A DNA stretch of 64,000 bases from Candidatus Pacearchaeota archaeon (GTDB taxonomy: Archaea; Nanobdellota; Nanobdellia; Pacearchaeales; GW2011-AR1): positions 7,752 through 71,751 of the forward strand of contig JAGVXK010000021.1 in NCBI GenBank assembly GCA_018303825.1. The letters are read 5' to 3'. Positions 15,620 to 43,625 of this stretch are shown here, in pieces. Each line of letters begins with the position of its first letter. The first letter of the stretch is position 1. The notes beneath the pieces are model-generated. The model saw only the letters and a program-made list of their open reading frames with translations. It had not been told where the DNA came from and did not search any database. Position numbers and translations under genes: made by a program.

Positions 15620-16339
15620 ATGAACGAGAATCCTGATGTAAAACAGGCAAATAAAACTCTATACATTGCTTTGGCAGTAATAGTCATATTAATCATTGGT
15701 TTGTTCACAAATGGCTTTGGACTATTTGGCAAAAGTTCTAACAGTGTAACAGTTATTCCTAATCCTCAATTAGAAATAGGAAATTCTCCCGTTCTTGGAA
15801 ACCCTGATGCAAAAGTAACAATTTATGAATTCTCAGATTTTTCTTGCCCATTTTGTGCAGCAGCAGATGGAGAGAATCAACAGTATATGAACTCATTAAA
15901 ATCGCAGGTTAAAGGATGGGAGCCACCAGTTCCGAATATAATAGAAGAATATGCAAAAACAGGAAAAGCAAAGATTGTCTTTAAATACCTTAAAACACAC
16001 GGCACAGGACAAGCAGCTCACGTTGTTGCCAGTGGATTAAAAAAACAAAGTGATACATTATTCTGGCAATTCCATGAACTTGCATTCGCAAACCAGGCTG
16101 ATACGGGAGATATAATAAAAATGAAAGCTCTTGCACAGCAGTTGGGGGCAAACATAACACAATTGGATGAATATATTGCATCTGGAGCTTTCAATTCTGA
16201 ATTCGAAAATGATAAAAATATGGCAATCGCAAATGGAGTCCAGGGAACTCCTTCGTTTATAATAGGAAATATCTTAGTTGATAAACCTATAGCTTATTCA
16301 GAATTCAAGAAGATAATTGATGACCAATTAACAAAATAA
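15620..16339 (+). CDS. DsbA-family thiol:disulfide oxidoreductase with N-terminal membrane anchor
   Basis: A TM segment is followed by VTIYEFSDFSCPFCAAA (CPFC active site) and a GTPSFIIG motif. Confidence 0.8.
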   Translation: MNENPDVKQANKTLYIALAVIVILIIGLFTNGFGLFGKSSNSVTVIPNPQLEIGNSPVLGNPDAKVTIYEFSDFSCPFCAAADGENQQYMNSLKSQVKGWEPPVPNIIEEYAKTGKAKIVFKYLKTHGTGQAAHVVASGLKKQSDTLFWQFHELAFANQADTGDIIKMKALAQQLGANITQLDEYIASGAFNSEFENDKNMAIANGVQGTPSFIIGNILVDKPIAYSEFKKIIDDQLTK

Positions 16340-16343
16340 AAAA

Positions 16344-16634
16344 CTAATGTTGCTCTAACTCTTCTTCTTGCATATACTGGCGAGCCTGATGTTTAAGGGC
16401 TTGATAGACAAGAATCATATCTGAAAATGTTCCAGCCCTTTGTTCCGGAGGATGTGATTCAGCAAGTGAAGCAATACAATCAGCCATTTTACGATTCTCA
16501 CGAACAATTTCTTCCATTCATGCACGAGATTGAGATAAATCAGTTGAAAGCATATGTCTGCCCATTAAGCTAATTGTTTGTCCAGTAATCACTGGCAGGC
16601 CATCTTCTGTGTACTTTTGATTATTTCTTTCCAT
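16344..16634 (-). pseudogene. Two abutting small ORFs (38 aa + 57 aa) separated only by TGA-ATG; possible disrupted gene
   Basis: Minus strand: MERNNQKYTEDGLPVITGQTISLMGRHMLSTDLSQSRA, then TGA (16518-16520), then MEEIVRENRKMADCIASLAESHPPEQRAGTFSDMILVYQALKHQARQYMQEEELEQH. A further start-less fragment lies at ~16735-16890. Confidence 0.3.
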
Positions 16635-16975
16635 TCTTCTTTCAAAAATACCGCATTTATAAATCTTCCCATTTATAACCACTATTAAGTTACATTAAAA
16701 TTTAAGTCCGGCATGATAATAAATTCTTAAAAGAAACGTGATTCTTGTCTTTTAAAGAACCTTTTTTCAAGTTTTCCACATATATCTGAAAATGTTCCTT
16801 CTGTCGGACCTTCTACAATAATCCCCACTGGGGCGCCATCCCTCCAATCGCCACTTGCATCATATTTGATTACTACATCCTCAAATAGATAAATATTGTG
16901 CTATATTATATTTCAGGATACAACACATGATTGCTGAATAGCAAAGTTTAAATAATCTGTTGTTACTTTAAAATT

Positions 16976-17569
16976 ATGAAAAAATCCCTTATTTTAATGG
17001 GCCTGGCACTATCATTTCTAATCCTAGCGGTCACTATGACATCAGCTTATACTAACTATCCAACTTACTACTCAAATAATTACAATAACTACTATTCGAA
17101 CACATATCCTACTTACTCGCAATCTGCAAGTGCCAATTCGGGCTCAAACTCCCAATACTTTAATTTTGGCCCTATAACAAGCAGGAATACGTATTATGAT
17201 TCAAAGTTTGCAAGCTCAAACTTTGACTCAACAGACTATGCCCTAGCCTATCAAGGTCCAATGGCATCAAGAGCAATAACTTATGATTCTTATTTAAAGA
17301 TAAAACCTTCTGGAAAAGTAATACAGACTGTATCTTATGCTGATAAATCAAACTTTGTTGGGGAAATAGCTTTAGAAACAGCTAACTCGCGAAATAGAAG
17401 AACCTCAGCTTCAGAAACGATAAAAACATCAACTGATAATTCCTGGAAGGGCTACACTTGGAGCAACAAAGAAGCATTTGACAACAGCAAATATTCGCAG
17501 AATTCTGGCTGGGATAATTACTATTATCGACCTGTTTTCTCAAACGGTTATTACAACTGGGACTGGTAA
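16976..17569 (+). CDS. Secreted Tyr/Asn/Ser-rich low-complexity protein
   Basis: A signal-peptide-like N-terminus (MKKSLILMGLALSFLILAVTMTSA) is followed by YTNYPTYYSNNYNNYYSNTYPTY.. repeats. Confidence 0.55.
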   Translation: MKKSLILMGLALSFLILAVTMTSAYTNYPTYYSNNYNNYYSNTYPTYSQSASANSGSNSQYFNFGPITSRNTYYDSKFASSNFDSTDYALAYQGPMASRAITYDSYLKIKPSGKVIQTVSYADKSNFVGEIALETANSRNRRTSASETIKTSTDNSWKGYTWSNKEAFDNSKYSQNSGWDNYYYRPVFSNGYYNWDW

Positions 17570-17620
17570 AAAATAGTTGGCACGTTAAGAAAGCCCCTCG
17601 TGTCTTGAATATTTGTTCGT

Positions 17621-17694
17621 GAATCTCTCTTCGAGTGGAATTGACGGCTATTTTAAGTTTGGATTTATGATTTGCGGTGGTGGGAAGGTGCGCT
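17621..17694 (-). repeat. Island repeat, inverted partial copy (arm A)
   Basis: Perfect reverse complements of blocks in copy B: 17681-17694 vs 18145-18158 (14 bp), 17661-17675 vs 18218-18232 (15 bp), 17639-17647 vs 18244-18252 (9 bp). Confidence 0.75.
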
Positions 17695-17701
17695 TTGTGC
17701 A

Positions 17702-18091
17702 TCAAATAGCTACTAATATACTCTCTTTTGCTCTGCTAGTCTCATCTGCAAATGGAACACCTCTCTTGTCATTATACCATCCATATGTTTCTACTTTAGC
17801 TCTTTGTTCTGCAAGTTTCTTTGCAATATCATGTGTTCTTTGCTCCACATTTTCACATTCATCGACTATTCCAATAACGCCATGCACATGTTCAATTCTA
17901 ACTTGCGCTCTATTTTCAAGTAACAAAATAACATATTTGCCATCAATTGGTTTTTCTGGAGTAGCAACTACTATCGTATTCCATACGTCATCTCTTAAAG
18001 GGTTAAAAAATTTAAAAGCAGATATATATTTATAGCCATCATTCCGTTCTGGTTTCCTTTCCTGCAAAACAATCCTTGGTCCGCTACCCAT
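17702..18091 (-). CDS. Hypothetical protein (129 aa) bracketed by inverted repeat arms
   Basis: Balanced, charged composition. The overlapping + strand ORF 17613..18035 is Ser/Cys/Leu-rich and starts inside the repeat. Confidence 0.55.
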   Translation of the reverse strand: MGSGPRIVLQERKPERNDGYKYISAFKFFNPLRDDVWNTIVVATPEKPIDGKYVILLLENRAQVRIEHVHGVIGIVDECENVEQRTHDIAKKLAEQRAKVETYGWYNDKRGVPFADETSRAKESILVAI

Positions 18092-18144
18092 CTTTAAACA
18101 ATATTCATCGCCCTTTTAATTATTTCTATATTGTAAAATATGTT

Positions 18145-18423
18145 AGCGCACCTTCCCATTTCTTATTCATCAATTATTTCGCGAAGCGACTATTTAGGGG
18201 CGGGTGGTCGGGGGAATGCAAATCATAAATCCGTTTAATATTTCCGTCAATTACGTTTAAGCGAGATTAAACTGTCTGCTTTCTGATTTGGGAAAGGGCT
18301 TAAGCGTAACGAGAAGAGAGATTGAGAATTATTTTCATTCTGAAAATAACTTCCTATTTAATTTATAATATTAAGAAGCAAATTTCAAGTTCATTTAATC
18401 GTTCAGGCTAAAAGAACTTTCAA
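18145..18423 (+). repeat. Island repeat copy 1, 5' half (B); candidate structured RNA or MITE-like element
   Basis: Hairpin tcgc-gaa-gcga at 18179-18189. G-rich block at 18197-18214. Hairpin cgtttaagc/gcttaagcg at 18254-18262/18298-18306. 28-nt block at 18396-18423 identical to 22758-22785. Confidence 0.7.
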
Positions 18424-18485
18424 CCAAAAGAAGACAAATCCGAAAAATATATATACCATGATTTATCACTATATTCAATTAACTC

Positions 18486-18509
18486 CATGAGATCTGTAAG
18501 GATCTCATG
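18486..18509 (+). promoter_or_regulatory. Perfect 9-bp inverted repeat catgagatc-tgtaag-gatctcatg just upstream of the NYN gene start
   Basis: 18486-18494 pairs with 18501-18509. It ends 9 nt before the ATG at 18518. Confidence 0.35.
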
Positions 18510-18517
18510 TTTTTTAT

Positions 18518-19066
18518 ATGAATTCCAAAAAAGAGAAGGTTGCGATTTACATCGATGGTAGTAATTTATATTTCTCAATAAAAGATACATTCAATTGTAA
18601 AATTGACTTAGAAAAATTCTGTAAAAAATTAGTGAATGATGATGATTTAGCGAAGATTAATTATTATATTGCTCCTGTTGAGCAATTAGAAAATCCTAAA
18701 GCATACGCTCAACAGCAATCATTCTTTGAAAAATTAAGGAAAATTGATAAACTAAATCTAATTTTTGGCAGGCTAGAAAAGAGAAAGAAAGATGGAGAAA
18801 TATACCATGTAGAAAAAGCAACAGATGTAAATCTTGCCCTTGATTTGGCTTTAGATGCACAAAAAGGGGAATATGATAAGGCTCTTCTTATCTCAAATGA
18901 TGGTGACTTTTCTGGAGCGGTAACTGCCGCAGTCAGTTTCAAAAGAAAAGTCATTTATATTGCCATAGGCACCAACAAATCTATATCTTATCATTTGAAG
19001 AAAGTGGCATCTGCAACCTTTCGAATTAATAAGGAATTCATTGATGAATGTAAATTGGATGAGTAG
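18518..19066 (+). CDS. NYN-domain (LabA/DUF88-like) protein
   Basis: VAIYIDGSNLYFS.. at the N-terminus and ..ALLISNDGDFSGAV.. match the NYN/LabA-type nuclease fold pattern. Confidence 0.75.
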   Translation: MNSKKEKVAIYIDGSNLYFSIKDTFNCKIDLEKFCKKLVNDDDLAKINYYIAPVEQLENPKAYAQQQSFFEKLRKIDKLNLIFGRLEKRKKDGEIYHVEKATDVNLALDLALDAQKGEYDKALLISNDGDFSGAVTAAVSFKRKVIYIAIGTNKSISYHLKKVASATFRINKEFIDECKLDE

Positions 19067-19144
19067 AGTTTTCGGCTATTAGTATATGGTGAAAGTTGGG
19101 TTAAATCTCGTTTCGAACTAAGAGAACAATTATGGAATAATTGA

Positions 19145-19326
19145 GAGATTTACCTTTTAGCAGAGATTAGGCGAGTCTGAAAGACCTCGAGCTACGAACT
19201 AAGAGTCTCGAGTTAGCTAAACCTCACAAGAATGGGCTCTTTGCGTAATTGCTGAGAATCTTATGTTCTTAGGGCATTTCATTTGTATCTGTCGGGGGCG
19301 CGTTTTTGCTTCTCGCAGAAAATCTC
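19145..19326 (+). repeat. Island repeat copy 1, 3' half (C)
   Basis: gagattaggcgag at 19163-19175 (identical to 22884-22896). ctcgag/ctcgag stem at 19186-19191/19207-19212. cgtaattg at 19244-19251. G-rich arm gtcgggggc.. at 19291-19326. Confidence 0.7.
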
Positions 19327-19409
19327 TGATTTTCTGAGCCATCAAGAACTTTGTTCTTGAGGTTTTCTGAAAAAGAAGATTTTTTATATGTTGTTTATTA
19401 TTAATATCT

Positions 19410-19727
19410 ATGACTTATGCAGTTTATACAACTGAGAGTTTTGATAAAGAGGTTGAGAAATTGTCTGGAGGAGACCGAGAGATAATTCAGAAAATGTTTT
19501 TTAAGATTAAAGACAATCCTTACGCCAGTAACCAATTAAGATACAAGAATCTTAGAGAGAAGCGAATTAGAGAAAAAAGAGTTTATTTTCTAGTTTATGA
19601 TGATTTGCGAGCAGTTCTTATTGTTGCTATAAGCGGTAAGAAAGACCAACAAGCAACAATCAATCATATAATCAATTACTTTGATGATTATAAAGAATAC
19701 TTGGAAAAATTGCTAGGAAAAGATTAA
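19410..19727 (+). CDS. relE: RelE/ParE-family toxin
   Basis: 105 aa. The pattern ..EKRIREKRVYFLVYDDLRAVLIVAISGKKDQ.. is typical of RelE/ParE mRNA-interferase toxins. Confidence 0.7.
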   Translation: MTYAVYTTESFDKEVEKLSGGDREIIQKMFFKIKDNPYASNQLRYKNLREKRIREKRVYFLVYDDLRAVLIVAISGKKDQQATINHIINYFDDYKEYLEKLLGKD

Positions 19728-19879
19728 GCAACCTGTCTTACTCTGCCAGCTTTAACATCTTCTAAACTTGCCTTGAACTGCCTTAATAAATCAAAGTCTA
19801 TCTTTTCTAGCTCTCTGAGCATAGCTACTTGAGCCTTCATCTTCTCGTATTCATCTTTTGGTACCTTTACCATTTCCAT
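19724..19879 (-). CDS. Small antitoxin-like protein (51 aa), convergent with and overlapping relE by 4 nt
   Basis: MEMVKVPKDEYEKMKAQVAMLRELEKIDFDLLRQFKASLEDVKAGRV resembles the C-terminal ..DIKAGRV helices of Phd/YefM-type antitoxins. Below the ORF-track cutoff. Confidence 0.4.
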   Translation of the reverse strand: MEMVKVPKDEYEKMKAQVAMLRELEKIDFDLLRQFKASLEDVKAGRVRQVA

Positions 19880-19936
19880 AAATATTTCTAAGAATCAAAG
19901 TTTTTAAGCTTTCTGGAAGTCACTTTTGCCCCCTTG

Positions 19937-20074
19937 TTATTGGTTAATTATCTCTATTTTGAGCTCTACTATCGTTCCCGGTTTTAGTCTCTCCTCTAAC
20001 AATTTAGGCATGATTATTATAGCTTGTTTGCCGTGCTTGGCGATTTTCTTGATTATTGTGAATTGAGTTGTCAT
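19937..20074 (-). CDS. AbrB/SpoVT-like small DNA-binding protein (45 aa)
   Basis: MTTQFTIIKKIAKHGKQAIIIMPKLLEERLKPGTIVELKIEIINQ follows the AbrB/MazE-type swapped-hairpin pattern (..G.s..v.iPk.l.e.l.l..G..v.i.i). Confidence 0.45.
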   Translation of the reverse strand: MTTQFTIIKKIAKHGKQAIIIMPKLLEERLKPGTIVELKIEIINQ

Positions 20075-20258
20075 CTTACTAATTTATAGATCTCATAAAT
20101 AGATACTCCTAAAATTGCATATCTTATTGCAATATTCTTTGCAAAATCCCAGAAAGGATTACCTAAGGGCGAGCCTAAAAATAAAGTATTAAACTTTATT
20201 CCAATAATCTATATTTTCCCACGAGATATCGTAGACAATTGTTTAAAAATTTACTAAC

Positions 20259-20429
20259 TTATTCTGCGGTGAGCCCTAAACTATCTTGATCTGGCAATGC
20301 ATCAGCATAGCAGTCATCTAACAATCTTTCATCAATTCTCTTCAAAGCCCTTCTTTCTCCAATAATTGGAATTGAATCTTTAACAAGTTCGACTAACGAA
20401 ATCTTTTTGTTATTTGCCTTCTCTTTCAT
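20259..20429 (-). CDS. Small hypothetical protein (56 aa), third gene of a minus-strand operon
   Basis: The ATG at 20429 lies 5 nt after the stop of 20435..21145. Translation: MKEKANNKKISLVELVKDSIPIIGERRALKRIDERLLDDCYADALPDQDSLGLTAE. Confidence 0.35.
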   Translation of the reverse strand: MKEKANNKKISLVELVKDSIPIIGERRALKRIDERLLDDCYADALPDQDSLGLTAE

Positions 20430-20434
20430 TTTTT

Positions 20435-21145
20435 CTAACCTCGTATTGAATCTTCTACAATTCTATTCACTTCTGAAAGTATGCGTTCCCTCGTTCTCTG
20501 ACCAAAAATCCTATGGATTAATGAACTATCGTCATAACTTTGTAAAACAAACTCAACATTTGGAGGAGATGTAAATTTCTTAAATCTTCTAAGGGGATAA
20601 ATAGTAGTAACTTTAACCACACAACCATTTTGTTCTCCACCATTTCTTCTTTCAAACAAATCTGTTTCTGCATTCTTTCCATATTCGTCTACTACTCGAT
20701 GGTCGTCTAATACTTGGAGGTATTGTAAATATGGAATTTGACCTTTAGGACAAACGTTTTTTGGTCTAAAACTAAAAGGTTCTTTGTTAATTTTATCTGC
20801 TACAAAGGTCAAGATGTCTTCGGGTGCCTTGAATAAATGTCTACCAAAATCCCTAAAATCTTGCCCTAAAATACCTATTTGAACGCCTTCCCTAGCAGAA
20901 AAACTATAATCTTTCTTTGTATCAAATTCTGTCCAAATATGCCCGCCTAGACTCTCTAAGTGCCCAGTACCATCCAGATGGTTTACAAGAAAAGCGGGCC
21001 AAGTTCCCTTATTGTAATATCCTACCTGACATCCTGTAATTCTTACATTGCCCATTCCATGCAAAAGGTACATTAAATGCTCTGGGCTAATACTATCAAA
21101 TATGGCACTGTTTTGTACTCTCTTATCATACTTTTGTTCAATCAT
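20435..21145 (-). CDS. Hypothetical protein (236 aa)
   Basis: Long ORF with normal composition. Its start overlaps the stop of the upstream gene (ATGA). His/Gly-rich segment HLDGTGHLESLGGHIW. No family recognised. Confidence 0.6.
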   Translation of the reverse strand: MIEQKYDKRVQNSAIFDSISPEHLMYLLHGMGNVRITGCQVGYYNKGTWPAFLVNHLDGTGHLESLGGHIWTEFDTKKDYSFSAREGVQIGILGQDFRDFGRHLFKAPEDILTFVADKINKEPFSFRPKNVCPKGQIPYLQYLQVLDDHRVVDEYGKNAETDLFERRNGGEQNGCVVKVTTIYPLRRFKKFTSPPNVEFVLQSYDDSSLIHRIFGQRTRERILSEVNRIVEDSIRG

Positions 21146-21723
21146 TTTCTTTCACCTCCGAATTTTTTCTGAAGAAAATCCAATGCTAGTTGCCTTTCTC
21201 TTTCTGATTCAAAAATAACAAGGGGCCTTGGCCAAGGTTTGTTACATTTTTTAATAAAAAATTCAAGCAGGGATTGATGAGAAGAAGCTAATAGATGATC
21301 AAACCCGCTAGGGGTTAAATCTGAGTAACCTGGTGTCATCGGGCGACCTATTTTGTCTGCGATAGAATTAACCTCATAGGGTCTTGGTGTGAATGATAAC
21401 GCATAAACCCTCAAACTATCTCCAAACCTACCTGTATTGACGTGCTGAATTAGGCATAATTGATCTCCCAAATAAAGATGCATTTGCATATCCATTTTAT
21501 CTCTTTCATCCGCATTACAATAAATACGCCCGCCAGGAACAACGGGTGATGCTCCGCATAGAGTTATTTCGCCAAACTGAGCAACCCTCTCTAAGTAAAT
21601 TGGACCCCCATCATTAAATCTCGGTGCACATAATGATAAGTTAACACTTCTCTCTCTACAAAAAATTGCGTTTGCCATTTCTTGATGGGCGTCTTTTCTT
21701 TCTATGTTTAATCTTATTCTCAT
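21142..21723 (-). CDS. Hypothetical protein (193 aa)
   Basis: First gene of the operon divergent from the TrmB-like gene at 21852. No family recognised. Confidence 0.6.
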   Translation of the reverse strand: MRIRLNIERKDAHQEMANAIFCRERSVNLSLCAPRFNDGGPIYLERVAQFGEITLCGASPVVPGGRIYCNADERDKMDMQMHLYLGDQLCLIQHVNTGRFGDSLRVYALSFTPRPYEVNSIADKIGRPMTPGYSDLTPSGFDHLLASSHQSLLEFFIKKCNKPWPRPLVIFESERERQLALDFLQKKFGGERK

Positions 21724-21851
21724 TTTCTATTTCTCCCAAGTTTATTTACTATCATAAGATAATGGCATAATAAAGTGTATTTAAATTATTGTTGTAAGGA
21801 AGCTATTAACAATTTAGAAAGAATTAAATATAACAATTCACTTGATTTTAT

Positions 21852-22565
21852 ATGGAAATAACTACACTCGAGAGTCTTGGAATGAACAAAACAGAGGCCA
21901 AAGTATATCTGGCTTTACTTGAATTGGGAGAAGTACAAGCAGGACAGATAAGTAAAAAATCAGGAGTTAATAGAACAAGCACGTATGATTCATTAGAAAG
22001 ACTAATATCGAAGGGTCTCGTTAAATATGTTATTCAATCAAATAAAAAGGTATTCGGGGCAGATAAACCCAATAAAATAGTTGAGCAATTAAAAGAACAG
22101 GAGAGAATAGCTAAGCAAATACTGCCAGAACTTAATAATTTGTTTAAAGAATCAAAAAAAGATGAGGAATCTGAGATCTATAAAGGCAGAAAAGGGATAA
22201 GGTCTATCTTGTTTGAAATAGTAAAATATAAAGAATATATTGCTTTTGGCTCAAAAGGCAAGTTTTTAGAGATAATGAAGCACGATTTTGAGATTTTTCA
22301 AAAAAGGAAGAAAAAATTAAAGATAAAAGCCAGAGTAATATTAAGAGAATCTGATAGGACTTCTGAATCTGTTAAGGTTGCTTATAGTGATTTTAAATTT
22401 GTTCCTGATGAATATGGATCTCCGACTACTACATTTGTTTATGGAAATAATATTGCCATAATTGTCTGGCTGTCTGAGCCAATCGCTACAGTAATAAAGA
22501 GTAAAGAGGTCGCTGAAAGCTATTCGCATTATTTTGAACTACTTTGGAAACTCGCAAAGCCCTAG
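21852..22565 (+). CDS. TrmB-family transcriptional regulator (paralog 1)
   Basis: The N-terminal winged helix LESLGMNKTEAKVYLALLELGEVQAGQISKKSGVNRTSTYDSLERLISKGLV is a typical TrmB HTH. Confidence 0.8.
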   Translation: MEITTLESLGMNKTEAKVYLALLELGEVQAGQISKKSGVNRTSTYDSLERLISKGLVKYVIQSNKKVFGADKPNKIVEQLKEQERIAKQILPELNNLFKESKKDEESEIYKGRKGIRSILFEIVKYKEYIAFGSKGKFLEIMKHDFEIFQKRKKKLKIKARVILRESDRTSESVKVAYSDFKFVPDEYGSPTTTFVYGNNIAIIVWLSEPIATVIKSKEVAESYSHYFELLWKLAKP

Positions 22566-23037
22566 ATGATACCTTCTTCGGCGTGAGCCGAAGCTCTCTG
22601 TGCGAAGCACCCAAGCCCCCGACCAATTTCTGTTTGACTGAAATGCCTACAATCAGCAATTTCGTTTAAGCTTGATTAAACCTTTGGATTTTTTGTTAGT
22701 GGCTTAAGCGGAGCAAAGAGCCAATTACTATTTTAAAGTTGAGGTTTACTTTTCGTCTAATCGTTCAGGCTAAAAGAACTTTCAAGGCAATTGTTAAAAG
22801 TCAAAATAATTGAAAGTTACAGAAAATTATGGTTTCCATAAAGGAAATACTTTAGGATAAAGTAAATAATTTTTCTTTTAGTGGAGATTAGGCGAGTCCA
22901 AAGGACCTCTTGGTGCGAATTAAGAGCCAAGAGTTAGTAAACCACAACGAAATATTTGCGAATAAGTGTAATTGCTGGCTATTTTGGTTTTGGGGCTGGC
23001 GAGGCGTTTTTCTAAGGGGCACTTTTTCCTAGTCTAA
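22566..23037 (+). repeat. Island repeat copy 2 (D), full length; candidate structured RNA or MITE-like element
   Basis: GNRA hairpin cttcggc-gtga-gccgaag at 22576-22593. gtgc-gaa-gcac at 22600-22610. C-rich block at 22611-22623. Hairpin at 22663-22671/22702-22710. 28-nt block at 22758-22785. gagattaggcgag at 22884-22896. Stem at 22907-22913/22927-22933. aattgctg at 22970-22977. G-rich arm at 22992-23027. Confidence 0.75.
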
Positions 23038-23544
23038 CTAGTTAATTAAAAACCTATAATAAGATGTAAGAAAATCCAAATTATCTTTAGGATTTATATT
23101 CATATTTCCCTCTCCTGTAAAAATAACCTTGTCCCTGAGAGGATATAATGGTGACGACCTAAACTCTACATATCCAACTCCCGCCACCCTAAACCATGGC
23201 TCAAAGTCATCATGACCACCCGTGGGCAAAATTATCCCATTTCTAATCTCACTCAAAATATGTACAATTTCTGATCTATCCCTCATTCTTGTCAATTTAG
23301 CAAAATTGAATTTTGTTATTGCATGTGCAACAAGCTTCCTATAAAACTCTGTGCCATACTCGTGATCTGAATTTGAATCGAAGTTCCTTCGACAAAAATG
23401 AAATTCCAGAGGATTTCCTTCAAAATTGGATGACTTAATCAAATTAAGACTATCTTCCAAAAACACGTCTAACGCATTCCGAATACACAACGGGTACTTA
23501 CCAACCCTTCTGAATATAAACGCGTCATCATATAACTTCTCCAT
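23038..23544 (-). CDS. Hypothetical protein (168 aa)
   Basis: Divergent from the TrmB-like gene at 23630. No family recognised. Confidence 0.6.
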   Translation of the reverse strand: MEKLYDDAFIFRRVGKYPLCIRNALDVFLEDSLNLIKSSNFEGNPLEFHFCRRNFDSNSDHEYGTEFYRKLVAHAITKFNFAKLTRMRDRSEIVHILSEIRNGIILPTGGHDDFEPWFRVAGVGYVEFRSSPLYPLRDKVIFTGEGNMNINPKDNLDFLTSYYRFLIN

Positions 23545-23629
23545 GAACTCTCTGTCTTGCCTAGTCTTTTAAATCTTAGTTGTTATTATTAATAACAACA
23601 TTTAAATAATCACTACAATAAAACTAATA

Positions 23630-24337
23630 ATGGAAGAACTCATAGAAAATTTAAAAATGGCCGGTCTAACTGGAAATGAATCAAAAGTTTACGTAGGTCT
23701 AATTAAGATTGGAGAAACTTCAGCCAACGAATTAGCAAAAAATCTGAGTTTAGACAGAACATTAACATATACTATTCTAAACCATTTAATAGAAAAGGGA
23801 ATGGTTGGCTATGTTATCAAAGCAAATAAAAAGTTCTTCTCGGCATCTGAACCACAAAACCTATTAAATAAAATAAAAAAAGATGAAACAGCGATAAAAA
23901 GAGTGATAGAAACTTTAAAAACAATGAAAACAACAAACGAGCCCTCCCCGAAAGTGAATGTTTATGATGGGAAAGAGGGACTCAGAACATTCTTAAGGCT
24001 TCTGACAAAAGATAAGAAGATTTCTGCATTTGGAGCGACAGGCAGATTATATGACTCTCTCTTCGAAACAGAAGCCATCGCAAAAGAATTAAAAAAAACA
24101 TTATCTGCTAGAATTATTGCTAGTAATAAATATCGCACCCATCCAATTAGGAAAATAAAGAGAATTGAAGTAAGATATTTAGATGTGGACAACGAGGCAA
24201 CAACAACCATTTTCGGAGATTATATTGCCCTACATCTTTTAACAGATAAACCATTCATAATAACAATCAAGAACAAAGAAATTGCGCATGGTTATCTAAA
24301 CTATTTCAATCTTCTCTGGAAAATCGCCAAGAAATAA
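23630..24337 (+). CDS. TrmB-family transcriptional regulator (paralog 2)
   Basis: LKMAGLTGNESKVYVGLIKIGETSANELAKNLSLDRTLTYTILNHLIEKGMV. Its C-terminus ..YLNYFNLLWKIAKK parallels ..YSHYFELLWKLAKP of paralog 1. Confidence 0.8.
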   Translation: MEELIENLKMAGLTGNESKVYVGLIKIGETSANELAKNLSLDRTLTYTILNHLIEKGMVGYVIKANKKFFSASEPQNLLNKIKKDETAIKRVIETLKTMKTTNEPSPKVNVYDGKEGLRTFLRLLTKDKKISAFGATGRLYDSLFETEAIAKELKKTLSARIIASNKYRTHPIRKIKRIEVRYLDVDNEATTTIFGDYIALHLLTDKPFIITIKNKEIAHGYLNYFNLLWKIAKK

Positions 24338-24797
24338 TCTGAAAAAGTGCCCCGTTCTGCTGTTTGATAATTATTGTTCGTATTTTCGCCAACAGGCGAC
24401 TATCTGTGCGTAGCACCACCGAGCCAGCCCCTATCGAACTTCCAGCAATTTTGTTTAAACTAGATTAAACGCTCTGCGTCTGATTTCTGAAAATGGTTTA
24501 AACGAAACGAATGAGCAAATCCCTAAAGAGGTTTACTTATCGTTTAATCGTTCGTAATAAGAGTGGTTTTAGCCATTAATACTTAAATCGTATGAGCTAA
24601 AACTAAGACTAAATTCCGTCTTTCTACTAAAGAAAGTATTTCAGGATGAAATAAGGAATTTATCTCTTATGTGAGATTAGCCGACCACTTTAGTAGCGCG
24701 AGCTGATTACGAAAATCCTCGCGACTTTTGCTTTGTTCTCAGCCGATTTCGAAGCGTAATTGCCAAGATTTATAAAGTAGTAGATTTTATTTAGATT
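24338..24797 (+). repeat. Island repeat copy 3 (E), near full length
   Basis: aaaaagtgcccc at 24342-24353. Hairpin tcgcc-aaca-ggcga at 24386-24399. gtgc-gta-gcac at 24406-24416. gccagcccc at 24423-24431. Hairpin gtttaaac/gtttaaac at 24453-24460/24496-24503. gagattagccgac at 24673-24685. Stem cgcgag/ctcgcg at 24697-24702/24718-24723. aattgc at 24758-24763. Confidence 0.75.
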
Positions 24798-25085
24798 ATG
24801 GGTTGGAAAAACTGGAGTTATTGGTTGAGAGGAGGTTTTTTGCTAGCAACGATTTACTTTATTTATACTTTACTTATAAATCAATTATATGGGACAGTTA
24901 TAAAAGCAGGATTATATCGCATATTATATGAGGTCGGATATCCCTTCAATTTTGTACGGTTTTTGGTTATGGGCTTTAATGAATCATTCATAGCCATAAT
25001 TTTCAGTTGGATAATTGCATATATTGTCTTTTTCCTTCTTGGAGCAATAATTGGTTGGATCGTTGGTAAAATAAAATCTAAGTAA
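24798..25085 (+). CDS. Small membrane protein (95 aa)
   Basis: Three hydrophobic segments. Flanked on both sides by island repeat copies. Confidence 0.55.
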   Translation: MGWKNWSYWLRGGFLLATIYFIYTLLINQLYGTVIKAGLYRILYEVGYPFNFVRFLVMGFNESFIAIIFSWIIAYIVFFLLGAIIGWIVGKIKSK

Positions 25086-25100
25086 TTCTTTTTTGAATAA

Positions 25101-25367
25101 TTGGCAATTTCGTTTAAGCAAGCTATTGTGCGACATCTCTGATTCGCACCCAGCGGTTAAGCGGAGCGAGAAATTAACGGGCTGAGAATTGCAAGCCGAA
25201 AGGGGCAAGAGTTTACAGGCAATATTCTATTTGTTACTATGGAAACTCTGAAGGGGAAGGGGCTTTCTTTTTCTTGAGGGGATTTGCAACCCGAGCGATA
25301 GCGAAGGGCAAAGCAAAAGTTTGGTTAATCATACTTAAACGAACATTAAGAATGAAAAAGAAAGGAT
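25101..25367 (+). repeat. Island repeat copy 4 (F), partial and rearranged
   Basis: ggcaatttcgtttaagc at 25103-25119, with the 3' arm ggttaagcggagcgag at 25155-25170. The inner stem gtgcga../..tcgcac replaces the usual loop. Further fragments are gagtttac and cttaaacgaac. Confidence 0.55.
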
Positions 25368-27926
25368 TTAACCTAATATGCTCAAATTCACTTGGACTTC
25401 TGGTTCTTTTGGAACTTTAACAATATCCGCCACTTTGTCTCCTTCTTTCAACTTAACCACATGGACTCCCTGCGTGGCTCTTCCCATGACTCTCAAGTCC
25501 CTCATGCTCGTTCTAAGGACCATCCCTTTTGTTGTCGTTATTATCACAGAATCACGGTCGTTGACACACAAAGAAGAGATGACATTTCCTGTTCTTTCAG
25601 AAACATCAAGACTAATTACTCCTTTTGCGCCCCTCGATGTCTTCCTATATTCTTCTAAATCTGATCTCTTCCCGAATCCTTTTTCTGCTACGGTAAGTAT
25701 TGTTGTTTTCCCATTCATCGGAAGACTTTCAAGAGCGACAACTTCATCTGTCTTTCCTAATTCTGCGCCTTTTACCCCATAAGATACCCTTCCCATAGGC
25801 CTTACCTCGTCGCTGTTGAATCTAACCGCCTGCCCTTTCTTTGTGACAAGCATTACTTCCTGCTTATCTATGACATGACTTACATTGATTAAAATATCAG
25901 AATTATCTGCCGGGAGATTTATTACCCTAACGCCCGTATTTCTTGGTTTGCTCAAATCTTTCAGTGGAAGCTTCTTTACCATTCCAAGTTTCGTGGCAAA
26001 CATCAAATATCCCACATCGAAATTCTTTACAGCTTTTACATTTGCTATGGCTTCATCTCTTAAACTTAAAAGATTGACAATTGCTTTCCCCTTTCCTTGT
26101 CTTTCTGCTGATGGAATATCATTTGCTTTCAGCCAATAAACCCTCCCCCTTGTTGTGAAGAACAATAAGAAATCATGTGTTGAGCAGGTAAGCATCTTGT
26201 TTACAAAATCTTCCTCTTTAAGTTCTGCCCCGCTTGTTCCAGCTCCGCCCCTCTTCTGCTCTTTATATGCCTTAACATCAACTCTCTTCACATATCCTGA
26301 GTTTGTAATCATAATGACAACATCTTTCTTCTCAATAAGGTCTTTTTCTGTTATTTCCTCAACCCTTCTTAATATTCTTGTTCTTCTCTCATCACCATAT
26401 TTTGTCTTAAATTCCTGAACCTCTCTCTTTATAACCTTTAGAATTTCTTTTTCGTCTCCAAGAATTTTCTTCAAGTCAGAAATTCCCTCTTTAAGCTTCT
26501 TTTCCTCATCCCTGAGCTTTCCTTCTTCTAATCTTGTCAATTGCTGCAATCTTATCTCCAAAACTGCCCTTGCCTGCTTATCAGTCAAAGAGAATTTCTT
26601 CATTAAGCCATCGTGTGCATCTGTCGCATTAGCTGATTTTTTGATAAATTCAACAACTTTATCAATATTCTTCTGCGCAATTAAAAGACCTAAGACAATT
26701 TCAAGCCTTTCTTCAGCTTTCTTCAATTCAAACTTGCTTCTATTCCTGACTATTAATCTTCTGTATTTGATATATTCTTCAATTATCTGCTTCAAATTAA
26801 GAACAACCGGCTTATTTCCAACAAGAGCAAGAAGATTTGCATCAAAACTCGTTTCCAGGTTAGTTGAAGTGTAAAGCTTGTTCAATGTAAATTTAGAATC
26901 AACTTCTTTTTTCAATTCAACAACAATTCTTACCTTTCCTTTGGAAGATTCGTCTCTTAAGTCATAAACATCTGGGAGCTTTTTCTCAGTTGCAAGCCTT
27001 GCAATCGATGTAACAAGATCAGACTTGTTAACCATGTAAGGTATTTCATTAATGATTATGATTGGCCTCCCTTTGCGCTCTTCAACTGTTGTTTTTCCTC
27101 TTATTACAATTTTTCCCTTTCCAGACTTATACATATCTTTTATTCCGTCTCCAAATATCTGTCCCCCTGTTGGAAAATCAGGGCCCTTTACTACTTCAGC
27201 AAGTTCATCTATAGTTATTTCCGGCTTGTTTATGCATTCAATTATTGCATCGCATACTTCTGTTAGATTATGGGGGGGAATATTTGTGGCCATTCCTACA
27301 GCTATTCCCGTAGCCCCATTAATTAGTAAATTTGGCAATTTCGCAGGAAGTGTTTCCGGCTCTTTTGTTGAATTATCGAAGTTAGGCCTCATCTTCACAG
27401 TTTCTTTATCAATGTCTTCAATTAATTCCTGTGAAATCTTTGAAAGTTTTACTTCTGTGTATCTTTGTGCTGCCGGACTATCTCCATCGAGTGAACCAAA
27501 ATTTCCTTGCCCGTGCACAAGTGGGTATCTTAAAGAAAAATCCTGTGCCATTCTCACGAGAGAATCATATACTGCAATATCACCATGTGGATGATACTTT
27601 CCTAAAACTTCTCCTACTACTGCCGCTGATTTTCTTGTTGGCTTGCTCGCATCAAGCCCAATAGAATGCATCGCATATAAAATTCTTCTGTGCACAGGTT
27701 TTAACCCATCCTCAACACTTGGAAGTGCTCTCTGAACAATAACGGACATTGCATAATCTATATATGCCTGCTCCATTTCCTCGACTATTTCCACGTTTGC
27801 TACGCCCTTCTCAACTTCTCCCTTTGCTCTTCTTTCCTGCTCTTTCTTTTCTGCTTCTATATCTATCTTTTTCTCTGTTTCATTCCCATTGCAATTTCCA
27901 TTTTTGTTTTCTTGCTTCTCCGCCAT
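25368..27926 (-). CDS. gyrA: DNA gyrase subunit A
   Basis: [29 protein letters not shown], with the active-site Tyr region ..[10 protein letters not shown].. and C-terminal beta-pinwheel repeats. 852 aa. Confidence 0.95.
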
Positions 27927-35774: not shown

Positions 35775-38700
35775 TCACTTCGAATGAGGTTTATCATGGC
35801 TATGAGATTCATGATAGACATGATGCCTCTTTAATTCATGATAATATCTCATTATTTCATGGTATATTTTATGCTTCTTTTTTTCTTCAAGGGTTTCATA
35901 AATCTCCTTTATTTTATGATAAATCAACCTGGCAAGATGCAAATTCTTTTCTTTAATCGCTTTTTCTCCTTTCTTGATTAGTCTTCTTATCTGCTCCAAT
36001 TTATCCTTTCTCCTCTTCCACAACCAGAACAATATTAAGTCTAAGATTATCAAAAATATGATTAACCACCATAATATTTTGTTGGCAAAAGATATCGTTT
36101 CGTTATTAGTACATTGTCTGCAGCTTCCACCGCAATCTATTCCAGTTTCATCCCCGTCTAGAATACCATTGTAACAAGATGGACAATAACCCTCTCCTTG
36201 CACAAATTGTATGTTTAATCTTCCTGATTTCTTCCACTCTTCAATATTTATATTAGTTACCGGAAGTCCGCTCAATCTGTCTATTGCTATCAAGGTTATC
36301 TTTCCGCAGACTTCTCTCTGGACAAAATCAATCTTCTGAGTTGACCCGCAAAGCATAGTATCTGTATAATTAGCTATGCAATTATTTTTATCATAGCATA
36401 TCCTTTCATTCTGCCCTGATTTCCTTATCTCTCCATTAAATATGTCCTCTACTAAATTTTCACTAACACAACCGCTCCAGATTCCGCAAACTATCTCTGA
36501 TGTGCAGTTCAAATTGCAAGATTGGCTCTCTGTTTTTCTCGCATCGCAGTTATTTCTGCACACTCTTGTCTTATTTCCATTTGTGCATGAAATTGTATCC
36601 CATTTGGGACAATTCCATCCTGTTGAAATACATCCTCCACCTCCTCCGCCTCCACCTCCTCCGCTGCTTACTGGAGCTGCAATTTCAAAGCTGCTGAAAA
36701 CAGAGTCATTTCTGTTTCCTATTGTGTCATTGCAATATGCCCTTAATGTATATGTGTCATTTAAAGCCCCGGTTTTGCTATAATTAAATACCAATCCATT
36801 TCCATCAAAACCGCTGGCATTCGCCATTGTCAAATTCGTAAGTCCGCTGTCTAGGGAGAAGATACAATAACCTCTCTCATTCAGCGTTATATTAACTAGA
36901 TAACTATTAGTGGCATATACTTCCCCGTTTACAGGACTTCCTATTGATACTTGGGGAGGCGTGCCATCAACACTAAACACAATGGATTCTGTTCTGTTCC
37001 AGTTTCCAGAAGTATCATTTGCATAAACTCTAAAAGTATAGCTACCATCTACAATTGAATTATTTGTTGCATTAAATTTCTCTCCAAACAAGACTGATTC
37101 GTTTCCAGTCATGCTGATGTTTGTAGCTCCATTATTTAAGCTATATAAAACTGAGCCATTTTCATTCAATGTCACATTAAACATTAATCCAGAAGTTACC
37201 TCAGCATTATTGTATGTTTTATTCGTTGGATTTATGATTGTAACCAATGGAGCAATTATATCTGCATTTATTGAAATTGTCCTTGTTTCTGTGCAATTTG
37301 CATTTCCAGAAGTATCGGAAGCGCATGCTTGATATGTATAAACACCGTTATCCAATCCTGCAGTGCTGTTCTTGCTTTGATTTATATACAAATACCATTG
37401 AGTTGAATTGTACTTTTGTAAATTACTCATATACAGTTCACTAATCTCTCCAGCAGTCAAAGACCTGTTCCATATTCTCAATTCATCTATTGAGCCGTTT
37501 AAGCCAAATGAATTATCAAATCCATCCCTAAATAAGTTTAATGCGATTCCAGAATCGTCCGAAACACTGCCACTTCCAATGTCCTGGGTTGAATAAGCTA
37601 CTTCATTGCCATTCAAATACAAACGAATTTTGTTGTCAGTATTACTCCACATATAAGCTATATGGTTCCAAGTATTATTTGAATAAGTAGTAGTGCTCTG
37701 GCTGACAGCCCAACCGCCTAGTGTTGATCTATAAAATCTTGCATATAAAGTATTATTTGGAGTAAGAAAAATCAGGTAACCGGCGGTGTTGTCTGAATTT
37801 CTTTTGACTATAAATGGTCCATTCAAGCTAGAACTCTTAATATATGCCCAAGCAGATATAGTAATTCCTGTTTTCCCATTAGCATCAATAGCCGAAGAAC
37901 TAGTTATATTGACGTAATCATTCACCCCATCAAATCGCAATGAGCTTCCGTACTTTCCAGATACATTATAAATCCCTCCACCGATAATTGTTCCATTATT
38001 TGAATATCTGCTTAAATCAACAACTTTAGTATCATTATCTCCCAAACTGCTTATATTATCAAAATTGTACATCAAGACAAGAGATAAATTATCATATATG
38101 TTATAGTTTGTTCCGTTCCAATTAAATGTCAGATTAGCAAGATTCTGCTCAAAGGTAGAAACGTTAATTGTTATGCTGGTACTTGTAGTTACTGTCCCGT
38201 TTGCTGGTGTTGGGGCTGTGAAGTTAATCAATGGGTTTGTTGTATCTGCACCGGCATCTAAAACAGAATAATTACTCCAACTGCTAACATTAAATACAAT
38301 TGTTCCGGCATTCAATGATGTAAAATTCGAGCACGTTGGAACCGTTGTCTCATCGCATTGACTTATCCCATTAACATAAATCTTTGGATTAACCATTGTT
38401 GTCGGTAATCCATAAAGAACAACATTTGCACTTGTATTCAACACTGTATTGGTCGAATCAACAAAAGCAGAATTATTTCTTATCGACACATTGCTTCCCA
38501 AAATTCCAGAGATAGTTGATATATCTAATGCATTAATCCAACCTATCTGTCCATTACTGGAATTCATAATTTTCAATTTCATAGTATTAAGATAATTGTT
38601 GCTTGTTTCAGTTAAAGCAGTTGAATAATTGAAAAGTAATATTCCGACATCGCCAGAAGTTCCTCCAGTTCCCCCGTTAAGATTTACAGTTATATTTGTA

Positions 38701-41342: not shown

Positions 41343-41418
41343 CTCTTTTTTATTGATAATCAGTACAAAAAGAGATATTTAAAAGTTGCTAAGTTGATGT
41401 TTGGGGGGTTGTTCTACA

Positions 41419-41865
41419 TTATTTCCAGAAGAAATAACTTTTTTTCTTCTCTATTCTATCCTCAAAATCAGCCAGATTTGCCTGCTTTGCTTCCTTCTTT
41501 TCCTTCAGATTAACGAATTTTTCATACATTACTTCTATATTTTTCTCGCACACAAAGTCATGCTGCCTAAATCCCCCGCCAAATGTCCTTGGAACATGCA
41601 TTAACTCATGAATTATAACCTTGTCCTGCTCATTCTTATCCAATCTATCAAATTTTTCAAGAAATTCAATGGCATAAAATGCCTTTGTTTTCATTGCCTT
41701 CTGCATTAACTTTCCAAGAGTATGACATCTTGCTATTGTCCTTCTTGTAGAAGAGCCAAAACTCCTTATGCATTCTATTCTATTGATATCTATATGACCC
41801 ATATTTAGCATGGTTATTATCTCATTCATTCTCTCTTTCAAATCTGGCGCATCTTCGTATTTCAT
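41419..41865 (-). CDS. Predicted zinc metallopeptidase (HExxH)
   Basis: The IIHELMHVP motif sits in a ~148-aa protein typical of small archaeal predicted metallopeptidases. Confidence 0.6.
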   Translation of the reverse strand: MKYEDAPDLKERMNEIITMLNMGHIDINRIECIRSFGSSTRRTIARCHTLGKLMQKAMKTKAFYAIEFLEKFDRLDKNEQDKVIIHELMHVPRTFGGGFRQHDFVCEKNIEVMYEKFVNLKEKKEAKQANLADFEDRIEKKKSYFFWK

Positions 41866-41908
41866 TTTATGAACCTCAACTTTCCATGAGCTTTTTTAAA
41901 GGTCATCT

Positions 41909-43234: not shown

Positions 43235-43436
43235 ACACCCAATCTTTGTTCATATCTTGCCCAGCATATTCTATTTTGCCAGGTGAGGCTCCTATTTTTC
43301 TGGAAAGCATATGTATAATCACATTTGCAGAATCATCATCTTGCTCAAAAGGAAGGTAAAGAAGATACTTATTACCTCCAAAATTCTCAAAATATTCTTT
43401 TGATGTATTGAACTTGACTTTTACAACTACTTTCAT
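43221..43436 (-). CDS. DUF167 (YggU)-like small protein (paralog 1)
   Basis: MKVVVKVKFNTSKEYFENFGGNKYLLYLPFEQDDDSANVIIHMLSRKIG.. fits the DUF167 pattern (V.VkPnskk ... dGkAN..li..Lsk.lgv). Confidence 0.5.
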   Translation of the reverse strand: MKVVVKVKFNTSKEYFENFGGNKYLLYLPFEQDDDSANVIIHMLSRKIGASPGKIEYAGQDMNKDWVFEVL

Positions 43437-43443
43437 CTTTTAG

Positions 43444-43524
43444 TTATCTCCCACATGATTTAAACCATCTTATAATATTTGGTTCCTTATTTAATTCTAT
43501 GCCCAAACTTACATTCCCAGTCAT
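43444..43524 (-). pseudogene. Truncated copy of the 82-aa membrane-protein gene (only the C-terminal motif retained)
   Basis: MTGNVSLGIELNKEPNIIRWFKSCGR parallels MTGNVSLNIELNREPAIVRWFKAFKS at the end of 45372..45620. The upstream frame is open but has no start and is closed by TAG. Confidence 0.45.
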
Positions 43525-43585
43525 TTTCTTCGCAACATAACATATTAAAATCAAAAAGACAATGTGGTCTTCGTCTTTTGGATGT

Positions 43586-43617: not shown

Positions 43618-43625
43618 CATAAGGA

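Follow-up and report, generated by a model that had tools for sequence, protein, structure and literature searches.

In integrons, the attC site is a single bulged hairpin of ~57 to 141 nt, and the cassettes are mostly single, co-oriented open reading frames (ORFs). The pdif (XerC/D) sites of Acinetobacter plasmids, which are 28 bp long, conserved in sequence, and alternating in orientation, are inverted recombination sites that are acted on in trans and enclose small accessory modules, often toxin-antitoxin genes. Repetitive extragenic palindromes and the mosaics that they form (REP/BIME) and BOX repeats are intergenic hairpin elements, some with a wobble strand bias, and the centers of their palindromes are known insertion targets. 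Ornate noncoding RNAs (ncRNAs) such as GOLLD, ROOL, and OLE, along with group I/II introns, have multiple helices and tolerate ORFs in peripheral loops. Archaeal integrons have been reported in Nanoarchaeota, mostly as arrays without an integrase (CALINs), with toxin-antitoxin-rich cargo and canonical attC sites (PMC9668308). Here, we describe a repeat array on the + strand of a 64,000-nt segment of the chromosome of a Candidatus Pacearchaeota archaeon (the window, in whose numbering all positions are given). The array, at 17570-25367, holds four gene blocks, or cassettes (0 to 3). Each cassette is bounded by inverted repeats that pair with each other as one helix of a folded repeat unit, which was previously undescribed. 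No description of cassette arrays or structured repeats of this kind in DPANN archaea was found in the searchable literature.

The function of the array is closest to that of integrons and CALINs, yet each of their defining features that was tested fails. The likeness lies in co-oriented arrays in which strand-specific structured elements alternate with accessory genes (promoter-bearing or promoterless), in a cargo rich in toxin-antitoxin and ORFan genes that differs between similar arrays, and in an enzyme that is often unlinked (PMC9668308). The array differs in lacking attC cores and IntI, in a unit of three to six times the size, which has eight helices and is conserved in sequence, and in cargo that sits in a hairpin apex, on both strands and often as several genes. 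In contrast to pdif modules, each gene block is bracketed by stems that are specific to its cassette and belong to a larger, co-oriented unit. REP/BIME and BOX repeats are likewise intergenic, repeated, and hairpin-forming, but they are dispersed elements of 35 to 150 nt that form no regular gene-in-loop arrays, and no insertion sequence is involved here. The ornate RNAs and group I/II introns share multihelix folds of several hundred nucleotides, strong covariation, and ORFs in terminal loops; the unit differs in having no Rfam match, few RNA-type tetraloops, internal oligo-T runs, and no flanking exons or splice-site features, and in forming tandem arrays with cargo of up to 3.4 kb on both strands. 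We know of no structured extragenic repeats or ornate RNAs that occur in regular arrays with genes in hairpin apices. Single-stranded DNA (ssDNA) signals with GNA mini-hairpins (phage G4, ssiA priming sites, and phage N4 promoters; PMC13037366) resemble the unit in their GCGAAGC, GCGGAGC, and GGA/GAA triloops on one strand only, but they are single 20- to 140-nt hairpins in phage or plasmid origins or promoters, whereas the hairpins here belong to a chromosomal unit of 400 nt that is repeated in tandem.

A folded repeat unit with genes in its hairpin apices

The intergenic spacers of the array carry two modules, L after each cargo block and R before the next one. L and R are contiguous in spacers D (22566-23037) and E (24338-24797), and an NYN-domain gene splits them in spacer B/C. 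Together they form a conserved, strand-specific repeat unit of ~320 to 470 nt. An alignment of 12 contiguous L-to-R spacers, taken from the window and seven other loci, yielded a consensus fold of 65 pairs in eight helices, in which 96.4% of the cells are paired. Double-sided changes occur in 37/65 pairs, and the covariation score of 0.533 compares with 0.193 for shuffled partners (0/500 reach 0.533) and 0.07 to 0.12 for shifted registers, in a test that is not phylogeny-aware. Compensatory changes thus exceed both the shuffled and the shifted controls, as expected of a single-strand element under selection. Along the + strand, the unit consists of H1, a junction that bears hairpin D and helix E, hairpin F, and helix A. 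The L-box (TTAATC) and the R-box (GATTAA) of one spacer pair with each other (H2 and H3) and so close the junction, which has H1 and F as hairpins on either side. Helix E bears two subhairpins, H6 and H7, the latter a 7-bp stem with an invariant GGA triloop; invariant loop nucleotides are a feature of the spacer fold.

The fold is also strand specific. Wobbles in the spacer helices are biased toward G.T over A.C on the + strand (29 versus 8), as they are at the base of helix A (39 versus 17), and the + strand arm duplex is the stabler one in 28/35 arm pairs. Such strand specificity implies that a single-stranded form is under selection. Several other explanations of the conserved motifs were examined and rejected. 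Pairing of the L-box with the R-box across the cassette was ruled out, since H2 and H3 covary inside the contiguous spacer, where ATAAGAG of L2 pairs with CTCTTAT of R3 and not with R2. A candidate TATA box upstream of the R-box (GGATAAA) proved to be the GGA-triloop hairpin H7. By inspection, the internal loops of the arms are large and asymmetric, unlike bulge-helix-bulge splice motifs, and the geometry of H1 is unsuitable for a K-turn. No relevant Rfam match to the spacers was obtained at 16300-25500 even at E values of ≤5, and none reached the gathering score. An attempt to derive the direction of replication from GC skew was abandoned, as the skew merely tracks the coding strand.

Helix A, the ninth helix of the unit, joins the 3′ end of one spacer to the 5′ end of the next and so spans the cargo. 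Because genes occupy the apical loops, its strands lie hundreds to thousands of bases apart and resemble cassette-specific terminal repeats. Each of the four gene blocks is flanked by several collinear inverted segments, with the GC-rich ones further in. The outermost segments of every cassette are AATTGNNNN and NNNNCAATT (at 17639/18244, 19247/22653, 22970/24442, and 24758/25101), and additional ones pair 17661-17675 with 18218-18232, 17681-17694 with 18145-18158, and 19273-19281 with 22639-22647. Apart from AATTG/CAATT, the arm segments are unlike among the four cassettes of the window. The duplex energy of the left versus the right flank was compared with that of 300 dinucleotide shuffles, none of which was as good as the observed duplex in cassette 0 (z = -6.5), cassette 1 (z = -5.4), or cassette 2 (z = -4.8); in the short cassette 3 (z = -2.5), 5/300 shuffles reached the observed value. 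In a 4-by-4 matrix of left and right flanks, the cognate flanks formed the best duplex in each row and column, and across 35 units the cognate arm duplexes averaged -55.1 kcal/mol versus -43.3 kcal/mol for noncognate ones. The four variable positions beside AATTG/CAATT pair at 3.55/4 across the cargo, compared with 2.44/4 with the neighbor inside their own spacer and 2.45 ± 0.10 for permuted partners (58 distinct units).

An initial annotation of the window, made from its sequence, had described the edges of cassettes 1 and 2 as imperfect inverted repeats and had proposed that they bound mobile units or serve as sites for a recombinase or invertase acting in trans. All seven strings that it quoted lie where it placed them, and its reverse complements are exact (GTCGGGGGC at 19291-19299 with 22615-22623, GGGGCTGGC at 22992-23000 with 24423-24431, and 23016-23028 with 24341-24353). 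The edges are genuine, cassette-specific inverted repeats whose complementarity is well above chance in three cassettes (z = -4.8 to -6.5), but the arms had been drawn too short, as they span 60 to 145 nt per side in several segments. The proposed cassette boundaries are real and need to be redrawn, because the arms are part of the repeat unit rather than of the cargo and the point of exchange is the stem tip. The G-rich block reported in copy B was found at 18197-18214. The annotation took it for the inverted counterpart of a C-rich block in copies D and E, to which it is only weakly similar (local alignment z = 1.4 to 2.2); the block is instead conserved throughout a whole unit family, where it is paired as a direct repeat with the left-arm G-run GGTGGTGGG. 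The G-runs at 17677-17685 and 18197-18214, like their counterparts in locus L027, are direct and not inverted repeats.

The repeats are abundant and recur genome-wide across a whole archaeal lineage. A search pattern for the L module was composed to fit the four L copies of the window, where it has 4 matches versus 0 expected. It matched 32 loci in a reference-genome collection, ~26 of them in metagenome-assembled genomes (MAGs) of Pacearchaeota, Woesearchaeota, Nanoarchaeota, or Parvarchaeum, and at least 118 stretches among the metagenome matches listed. The L and R modules were then located with nhmmer profiles. Of the 151 loci retained for analysis, most of which are short metagenome contigs, 123 carry an array (Pacearchaeota, Woesearchaeota, and Nanoarchaeota), with 169 R and 225 L modules in total. 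The modules alternate almost perfectly (adjacencies RL, 141; LR, 117; other, 12) and lie on both strands in only one of the 123 loci, and the sequence of the unit is conserved across orders. On viral contigs, 0/20 pattern matches from IMG/VR fit the profiles, all 20 being chance matches. An uninserted array is a simple tandem repeat, as in locus L066, which has five modules in 1.5 kb. In L018 (4854-4929), a TrmB-type 3′ arm is fused directly to the next R module and the whole L module is gone, a deletion variant which shows that arrays can lose half-units.

A second family with the H1 core, from 17 metagenome loci, was rejected as an ORF-poor, unrelated high-copy repeat of 45% GC. These look-alikes of the H1 core (L060, L061, L072-L076, L079, L085, L101, L124, L125, L130, L138, L155, L160, L167, and L173) have 42 to 47% GC and no long ORFs; their contigs contain the CAATTTCGTTTAAAC…CGTTTAAACG hairpin core as in the arrays, with different flanks, and appear to represent a high-copy repeat of an unrelated and probably eukaryotic genome.

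Cargo replacement at the stem tip

The cargo comprises one to seven ORFs, on both strands, and is housed in the loop of either helix A or hairpin D. The helix A inserts range from 22 to 3,400 nt, with a median of 626 nt (n = 134). In L066 and L099, helix A is empty and forms a plain 8- to 9-bp hairpin with a loop of ~20 nt; in L099, AATTG/CAATT is replaced by ACTCT/AGAGT, a fully compensatory change. Hairpin D is empty in 82/116 spacers and contains a 0.5- to 1.2-kb insert in the other 34. The spacer of L031 that is homologous to B/C has no insert where the window has its NYN gene.

Cargo differs even between units with closely related arms. Among 177 between-locus pairs of units with homologous arms on both sides, 29 were duplicate assemblies, and the cargo lacked DNA similarity in 146 of the 148 remaining pairs. 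The arms of window unit 0, L063, and L113 are 94 to 95% identical, and they enclose genes of 129 aa (-), 116 aa (+), and 97 aa (+), respectively, with no mutual protein similarity. The similarity of the three units ends exactly at the stem tip, in the order GGGAAGGTGCGC, cargo, GCGCACCTTCCC (GGTGCGC/GCGCACC). The units of L027, L133, L031, and L175 show the same tip-bounded change of cargo at slightly different GC-rich tips, and the counterparts of cargo 0 in units with homologous arms are unrelated genes of 116, 97, 285, and 238 aa. Outside duplicate assemblies, homologous cargo is rare and always accompanied by at least one homologous arm. Near-identical arms with different cargo fit some process of exchange acting in trans, as the initial annotation had envisaged.

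Cargo families keep to particular slots and orientations. NYN homologues (7/7) and the pair formed by a RelE/barnase-like 97-aa gene and an 84-aa gene (9/9) are always in slot D on the + strand, the 95-aa membrane family is in slot A on the + strand (6/6), and a 285-aa family has a fixed orientation (6/6). No inverted cargo matches were found between units. Overall, the cargo consists of toxin-antitoxin pairs, regulators, small membrane proteins, and ORFans. No type of cargo is more frequent than the TrmBL2-like regulators (21852-22565 and 23630-24337 in the window, plus 29 homologues in other loci). TrmB-like regulators lie in slot A, directly abutting the 3′ arm, and are on the + strand in 11/14 cases; the 3′ arm of TrmBL2-like units contains a conserved module composed of a hairpin, ACTATCTGT, a GCGAAGC hairpin, and CCNAGCCNCCCC. 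The regulators are paired with variable divergent ORFans that belong to no Pfam family, such as the 193-aa, 236-aa, and 168-aa genes of the window. The TrmB-like cargo was considered as the missing enzyme and rejected: it aligns over its full length with the chromatin regulator TrmBL2 and has no nuclease or catalytic domain.

Three further observations concern the inserts. The unrelated cargos of L063 and L113 have a common AT-rich stretch (…ataatagtaacaaatagaaa..tttaaa…) within the first ~50 nt inside the left stem, which may be a promoter of the scaffold rather than of the cargo. In L031 (1300-2180) and L175 (oriented, ~634-1560), a 9-bp direct repeat, GGGTGGGGG, is present on both sides of the GC-rich inner stem plus cargo and resembles a target-site duplication. 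An exact-protein look-up for strain-level cargo polymorphism returned contigs that were all identical except L038, a 2-kb contig of another assembly that matches the window at 100% identity, starting with the first codon of the 95-aa gene and continuing through gyrA. Upstream of the match at window position 24798, L038 (1-579) consists of unrelated sequence with a 161-aa ORF, and the break coincides with the inner edge of the unit 3 helix A; L038 may be a strain variant or an assembly chimera.

Readings of the array

Considering the fold, its covariation and strand asymmetry, the lineage-wide array architecture, the empty hairpins, and the replacement of cargo at the stem tip between conserved arms, all observed directly, we regard it as an even call that the array is an integron-like scaffold for gene capture at hairpin tips in DPANN archaea, without attC sites or a linked integrase, whose unit works as a folded single strand. 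The units run head to tail and house accessory genes in the apical loops, mostly that of helix A and more rarely that of hairpin D. In this reading, for which we infer both an enzyme and the form of the nucleic acid, the unit would act as a folded single strand of + strand DNA, and the apices of helix A and hairpin D would be preferred or targeted points for the insertion and exchange of foreign genes. Capture might be performed by an unlinked enzyme that recognizes the folded unit or might follow breakage of a hairpin or cruciform tip, and the stems would be retained because they hold the unit folded around the looped-out cargo. Stronger arms tend to accompany larger cargo, as judged by inspection of the duplex energies with no correlation computed, which fits that role of the stems. 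More tentatively, the DPANN archaea (Pacearchaeota, Woesearchaeota, and Nanoarchaeota) may possess an unrecognized capture system of their own, built of tandem ~400-nt units of folded DNA with two hairpin apices each as site-specific points of entry and exchange, with the cargo inside the hairpin loop; it would be functionally analogous to integrons, mechanistically unrelated to them in having neither attC nor IntI, and operated by an enzyme that would recognize or cut the tips of hairpins.

Several points weigh against capture at hairpin tips. Neither recombinases nor transposases, HUH proteins, or reverse transcriptases recur within the arrays of the 123 loci or next to them, no recombinase lies in or beside the array of the window, and the only tyrosine recombinase of the window is 31 kb away, beside a tRNA. 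No excised circle, within-strain empty/filled polymorphism, or moved cassette was found, and homologous cargo always keeps at least one homologous arm, so that active mobility is no more than a possibility. An eight-helix site of 400 nt is far more elaborate than any known recombination site and would be more typical of an RNA. In DNA, G.T pairs are less favorable than G.U pairs in RNA, and the preference for DNA draws on loop statistics and T-runs. Cargo at the tips could also arise passively if insertions elsewhere destroy a selected fold, although passive tolerance explains the repeated use of an identical nucleotide position less well.

On the evidence of loops and T-runs, we rate + strand DNA as an even bet for the folded form and RNA as a possibility. 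We lean toward DNA because GNA mini-hairpins and triloops favor one strand and because the spacers show no avoidance of T-runs. The arrays contain 39 copies of GCGNAGC on the + strand versus 11 on the - strand; in the array of the window, GCGNAGC and GCGNNAGC together occur 8 times versus 1, and both are nearly absent elsewhere in the window. Of the triloops, 66/164 on the + strand (40%) are of the GNA type versus 9/164 on the - strand (5%), whereas GNRA tetraloops number 5/150 and GNRA and UNCG each account for ~3%. Runs of five or more T residues, which are archaeal terminator signals, are present on the structural strand in 42/56 spacers. Mini-hairpins with GNA loops are reviewed as being far stabler in DNA than in RNA and occur at ssDNA priming sites and phage N4 hairpin promoters (PMC13037366).

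The alternative that survives best, though we find it doubtful, is that the unit is a large structured ncRNA, a new ornate archaeal class in tandem copies, with loops of helix A and hairpin D that tolerate passive insertions and arms that merely close the fold. Eight covarying helices with invariant loop nucleotides, the excess of G.U-type wobbles on one strand, the strict co-orientation and conservation across orders, and a size and complexity akin to those of large bacterial ncRNAs would all be expected of such an RNA, which, to our knowledge, would be the first large ornate ncRNA class specific to archaea. They have to be set against the T-runs inside most spacers, loops that are predominantly of the DNA-type GNA class with GNRA/UNCG tetraloops nearly absent, and the lack of any Rfam match. 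Moreover, closing helix A in cis would require transcripts that read through as much as 3.4 kb of cargo genes in antisense, and three unrelated cargos at one nucleotide within arms that are 94 to 95% identical are hard to reconcile with passive tolerance.

That the cassettes are nonautonomous transposons with terminal inverted repeats, possibly nested and moved into a repeated target by a transposase encoded elsewhere, is very unlikely. The several layers of inverted repeats around each cargo and the direct repeat GGGTGGGGG around the inner repeat and cargo of L031 and L175 are what such elements might leave, and multisegment arms could come from nested insertions. However, both the inner and the outer termini of the arms are wholly different between cassettes and offer no common transposase-binding end, and no target-site duplication is apparent by eye in the window outside AATTG/CAATT, where no formal scan was run. 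The arms, rather than the cargo, are conserved between genomes; they run into the conserved multihelix fold and show strand-biased wobbles and compensatory change, including that from AATTG to ACTCT. No transposase family recurs in the 123 loci, and no copies were found outside arrays or on viral contigs. The transposon reading, which the initial annotation had put forward for its repeat-bounded units, therefore fails for want of shared termini and dispersed copies and because it is the arms that are conserved; the arms are not transposon ends.

An ordinary archaeal integron array without an integrase, a CALIN whose spacers hold attC sites, we consider most improbable despite the similar array form and type of cargo and the CALINs reported in Nanoarchaeota (PMC9668308). 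A regular-expression scan of all five spacers on both strands revealed no paired RYYYAAC…GTTRRRY cores 40 to 130 nt apart. The unit has eight helices in 320 to 470 nt rather than the single bulged hairpin of attC, its sequence is conserved across orders, unlike that of attC, and its cargo lies in the hairpin loop, on both strands, and not between hairpins. No IntI-type recombinase is present in or beside the window array, and none recurs in the 123 loci. The other proposal of the initial annotation, that an invertase acts at the inverted repeats, which would turn the cassettes around in the manner of shufflons or invertons, is just as improbable: inverted repeats do surround each segment, and the G-block of copy B faintly resembles an inverted C-block, but the reading fails because orientation is constant, as seen in the co-oriented modules, the cargo families of fixed orientation, the G-block that characterizes a whole unit family, the collinearity of L034, L035, L037, and L039, from other assemblies of this population, with the window at 100% identity, and the gene content and order of the source contig, which are those of the window.

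Layout of the array and its surroundings

The features of the array are listed in Table 1.

Table 1. Parts of the repeat array in the window, in order of position
Feature	Positions	Strand	Description
Whole array	17570-25367	+	Four R and four L modules (R,L,R,L,R,L,R,L), flanked by a 197-aa ORF on the left and gyrA (3′ end) on the right
R0, truncated R module	17570-17638	+	Left end of array; remnant of hairpin F only (Rmod profile positions 57-112); full-length counterparts in L027, L031
Helix A unit 0, 5′ strand	17639-17695	+	AATTGACGG 17639-17647, GGATTTATGATTTGC 17661-17675, TGGGAAGGTGCGCT 17681-17694; exact inverted matches
Left-arm G-run GGTGGTGGG, unit 0	between the helix A segments of 17639-17695	+	Arms 94-95% identical in L063, L113
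Cargo 0, helix A apex	17696-18144	-	129-aa ORF 17702-18091, no Pfam family
Helix A unit 0, 3′ strand	18145-18252	+	18145-18158, 18218-18232, 18244-18252
Interior module of unit 0 3′ arm		+	GCGAAGC mini-hairpin 18181-18187; G-block 18197-18214
L module, spacer B/C	18245-18423	+	H1 CGTTTAAGC 18254-18262 / GCTTAAGCG 18298-18306; L-box 18394-18401
L module, spacer B/C, 3′ part		+	H3 5′ strand 18408-18414; hairpin D 5′ strand 18415-18423
Slot D cargo, hairpin D loop	18424-19088	+	NYN-domain gene 18518-19066 (Pfam NYN, 7.9e-19)
R module, spacer B/C	19089-19255	+	Hairpin D 3′ strand 19089-19097, helix E, R-box 19163-19171, hairpin F, then AATTGCTGA 19247-19255
Helix A unit 1, 5′ strand	19247-19379	+	Exact segments 19247-19255, 19273-19281, 19291-19299; contains left arm of the initial annotation, 19291-19326; z = -5.4
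Cargo 1	19410-22565	both	105-aa RelE-like ORF (+), small ORFs, 236-aa and 193-aa ORFs (-), TrmBL2-like regulator 21852-22565 (+)
Helix A unit 1, 3′ strand	22566-22661	+	Exact segments 22615-22623, 22639-22647, 22653-22661; contains right arm of the initial annotation, 22590-22623
Mini-hairpins, unit 1 3′ arm		+	GCGTGAGC 22581; GCGAAGC 22602
Spacer D, complete, contiguous	22653-22978	+	H1 22660-22671/22702-22713; H2 22757-22766/22884-22891; H3 22770-22776/22875-22881
Spacer D hairpins		+	Hairpin D 22777-22786/22809-22818; helix E 22823-22830/22866-22873; H6 22833-22837/22843-22847; H7 (GGA triloop) 22848-22854/22858-22864; hairpin F 22907-22916/22926-22933
Helix A unit 2, 5′ strand	22970-23028	+	AATTGCTGG 22970-22978, GGGGCTGGC 22992-23000, GGGGCACTTTTTC 23016-23028; z = -4.8
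Cargo 2	23038-24337	both	168-aa ORF (-); TrmBL2-like regulator 23630-24337 (+)
Helix A unit 2, 3′ strand	24341-24450	+	24341-24353, 24423-24431, 24442-24450; GCGTAGC mini-hairpin 24408
Spacer E, complete, contiguous	24442-24766	+	H1 24449-24460/24496-24507; H2 24544-24553/24673-24680; H3 24557-24563/24664-24670
Spacer E hairpins		+	Hairpin D 24564-24573/24596-24605; helix E 24610-24617/24655-24662; H6 24620-24624/24632-24636; H7 24637-24643/24647-24653; hairpin F 24697-24706/24716-24723
Unit 3	24758-25109	+	Short helix A, AATTGCCAA 24758-24766 / TTGGCAATT 25101-25109, around 95-aa membrane-protein gene 24798-25085; z = -2.5
Terminal L module	25101-25347	+	Widespread F-type with enlarged variable region; array ends at hairpin D 5′ strand, just ahead of the gyrA stop codon

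The window is a segment of archaeal chromosome, with genes for RNA polymerase, ribosomal proteins, EF-2, eIF2-gamma, gyrase, and an intron-containing tRNA; three tRNAs are its only Rfam matches at the gathering score. The nhmmer profiles detected no other copies of the L or R modules in the 64 kb outside the array. The stretch at 16344-16975, immediately upstream of the 197-aa ORF by which the first R module is truncated, contains two small ORFs on the - strand (57 and 54 aa) and ~300 nt of noncoding sequence and may be a decayed part of the array. The tyrosine recombinase (56186-57439, - strand; 417 aa) has a weak match to Phage_integrase (30 bits), adjoins a tRNA with a long intron (57592-57719, - strand), and is probably the integrase of an integrated element with a tRNA attachment site. 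A possible variable locus for the cell surface or for host interaction, at 35775-45110 on the - strand, encodes three paralogous surface proteins of the Laminin_G_3/concanavalin-like type (1,852, 425, and 494 aa) and a phage-type metallopeptidase (41419-41865) and contains a 300-nt sequence directly repeated at 42992 and 44916.

The covariation signal of the unit is among the clearest obtainable from a dozen sequences, and the unit matches no catalogued RNA family or type of mobile element. The L and R profiles provide a sequence handle on the arrays and on their cargo, in which unannotated modules of the toxin-antitoxin and TrmBL2-like regulator types are plentiful, and either the DNA or the RNA reading explains why MAGs are fragmented at such loci. 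The acquisition and shuffling of accessory genes are poorly understood in DPANN archaea, host-dependent organisms with very small genomes. Should genes truly be inserted at the hairpin tips, the arrays would solve the integron problem, the storage and exchange of cassettes, in a second and independent way, and they could also represent a natural safe-harbor architecture.

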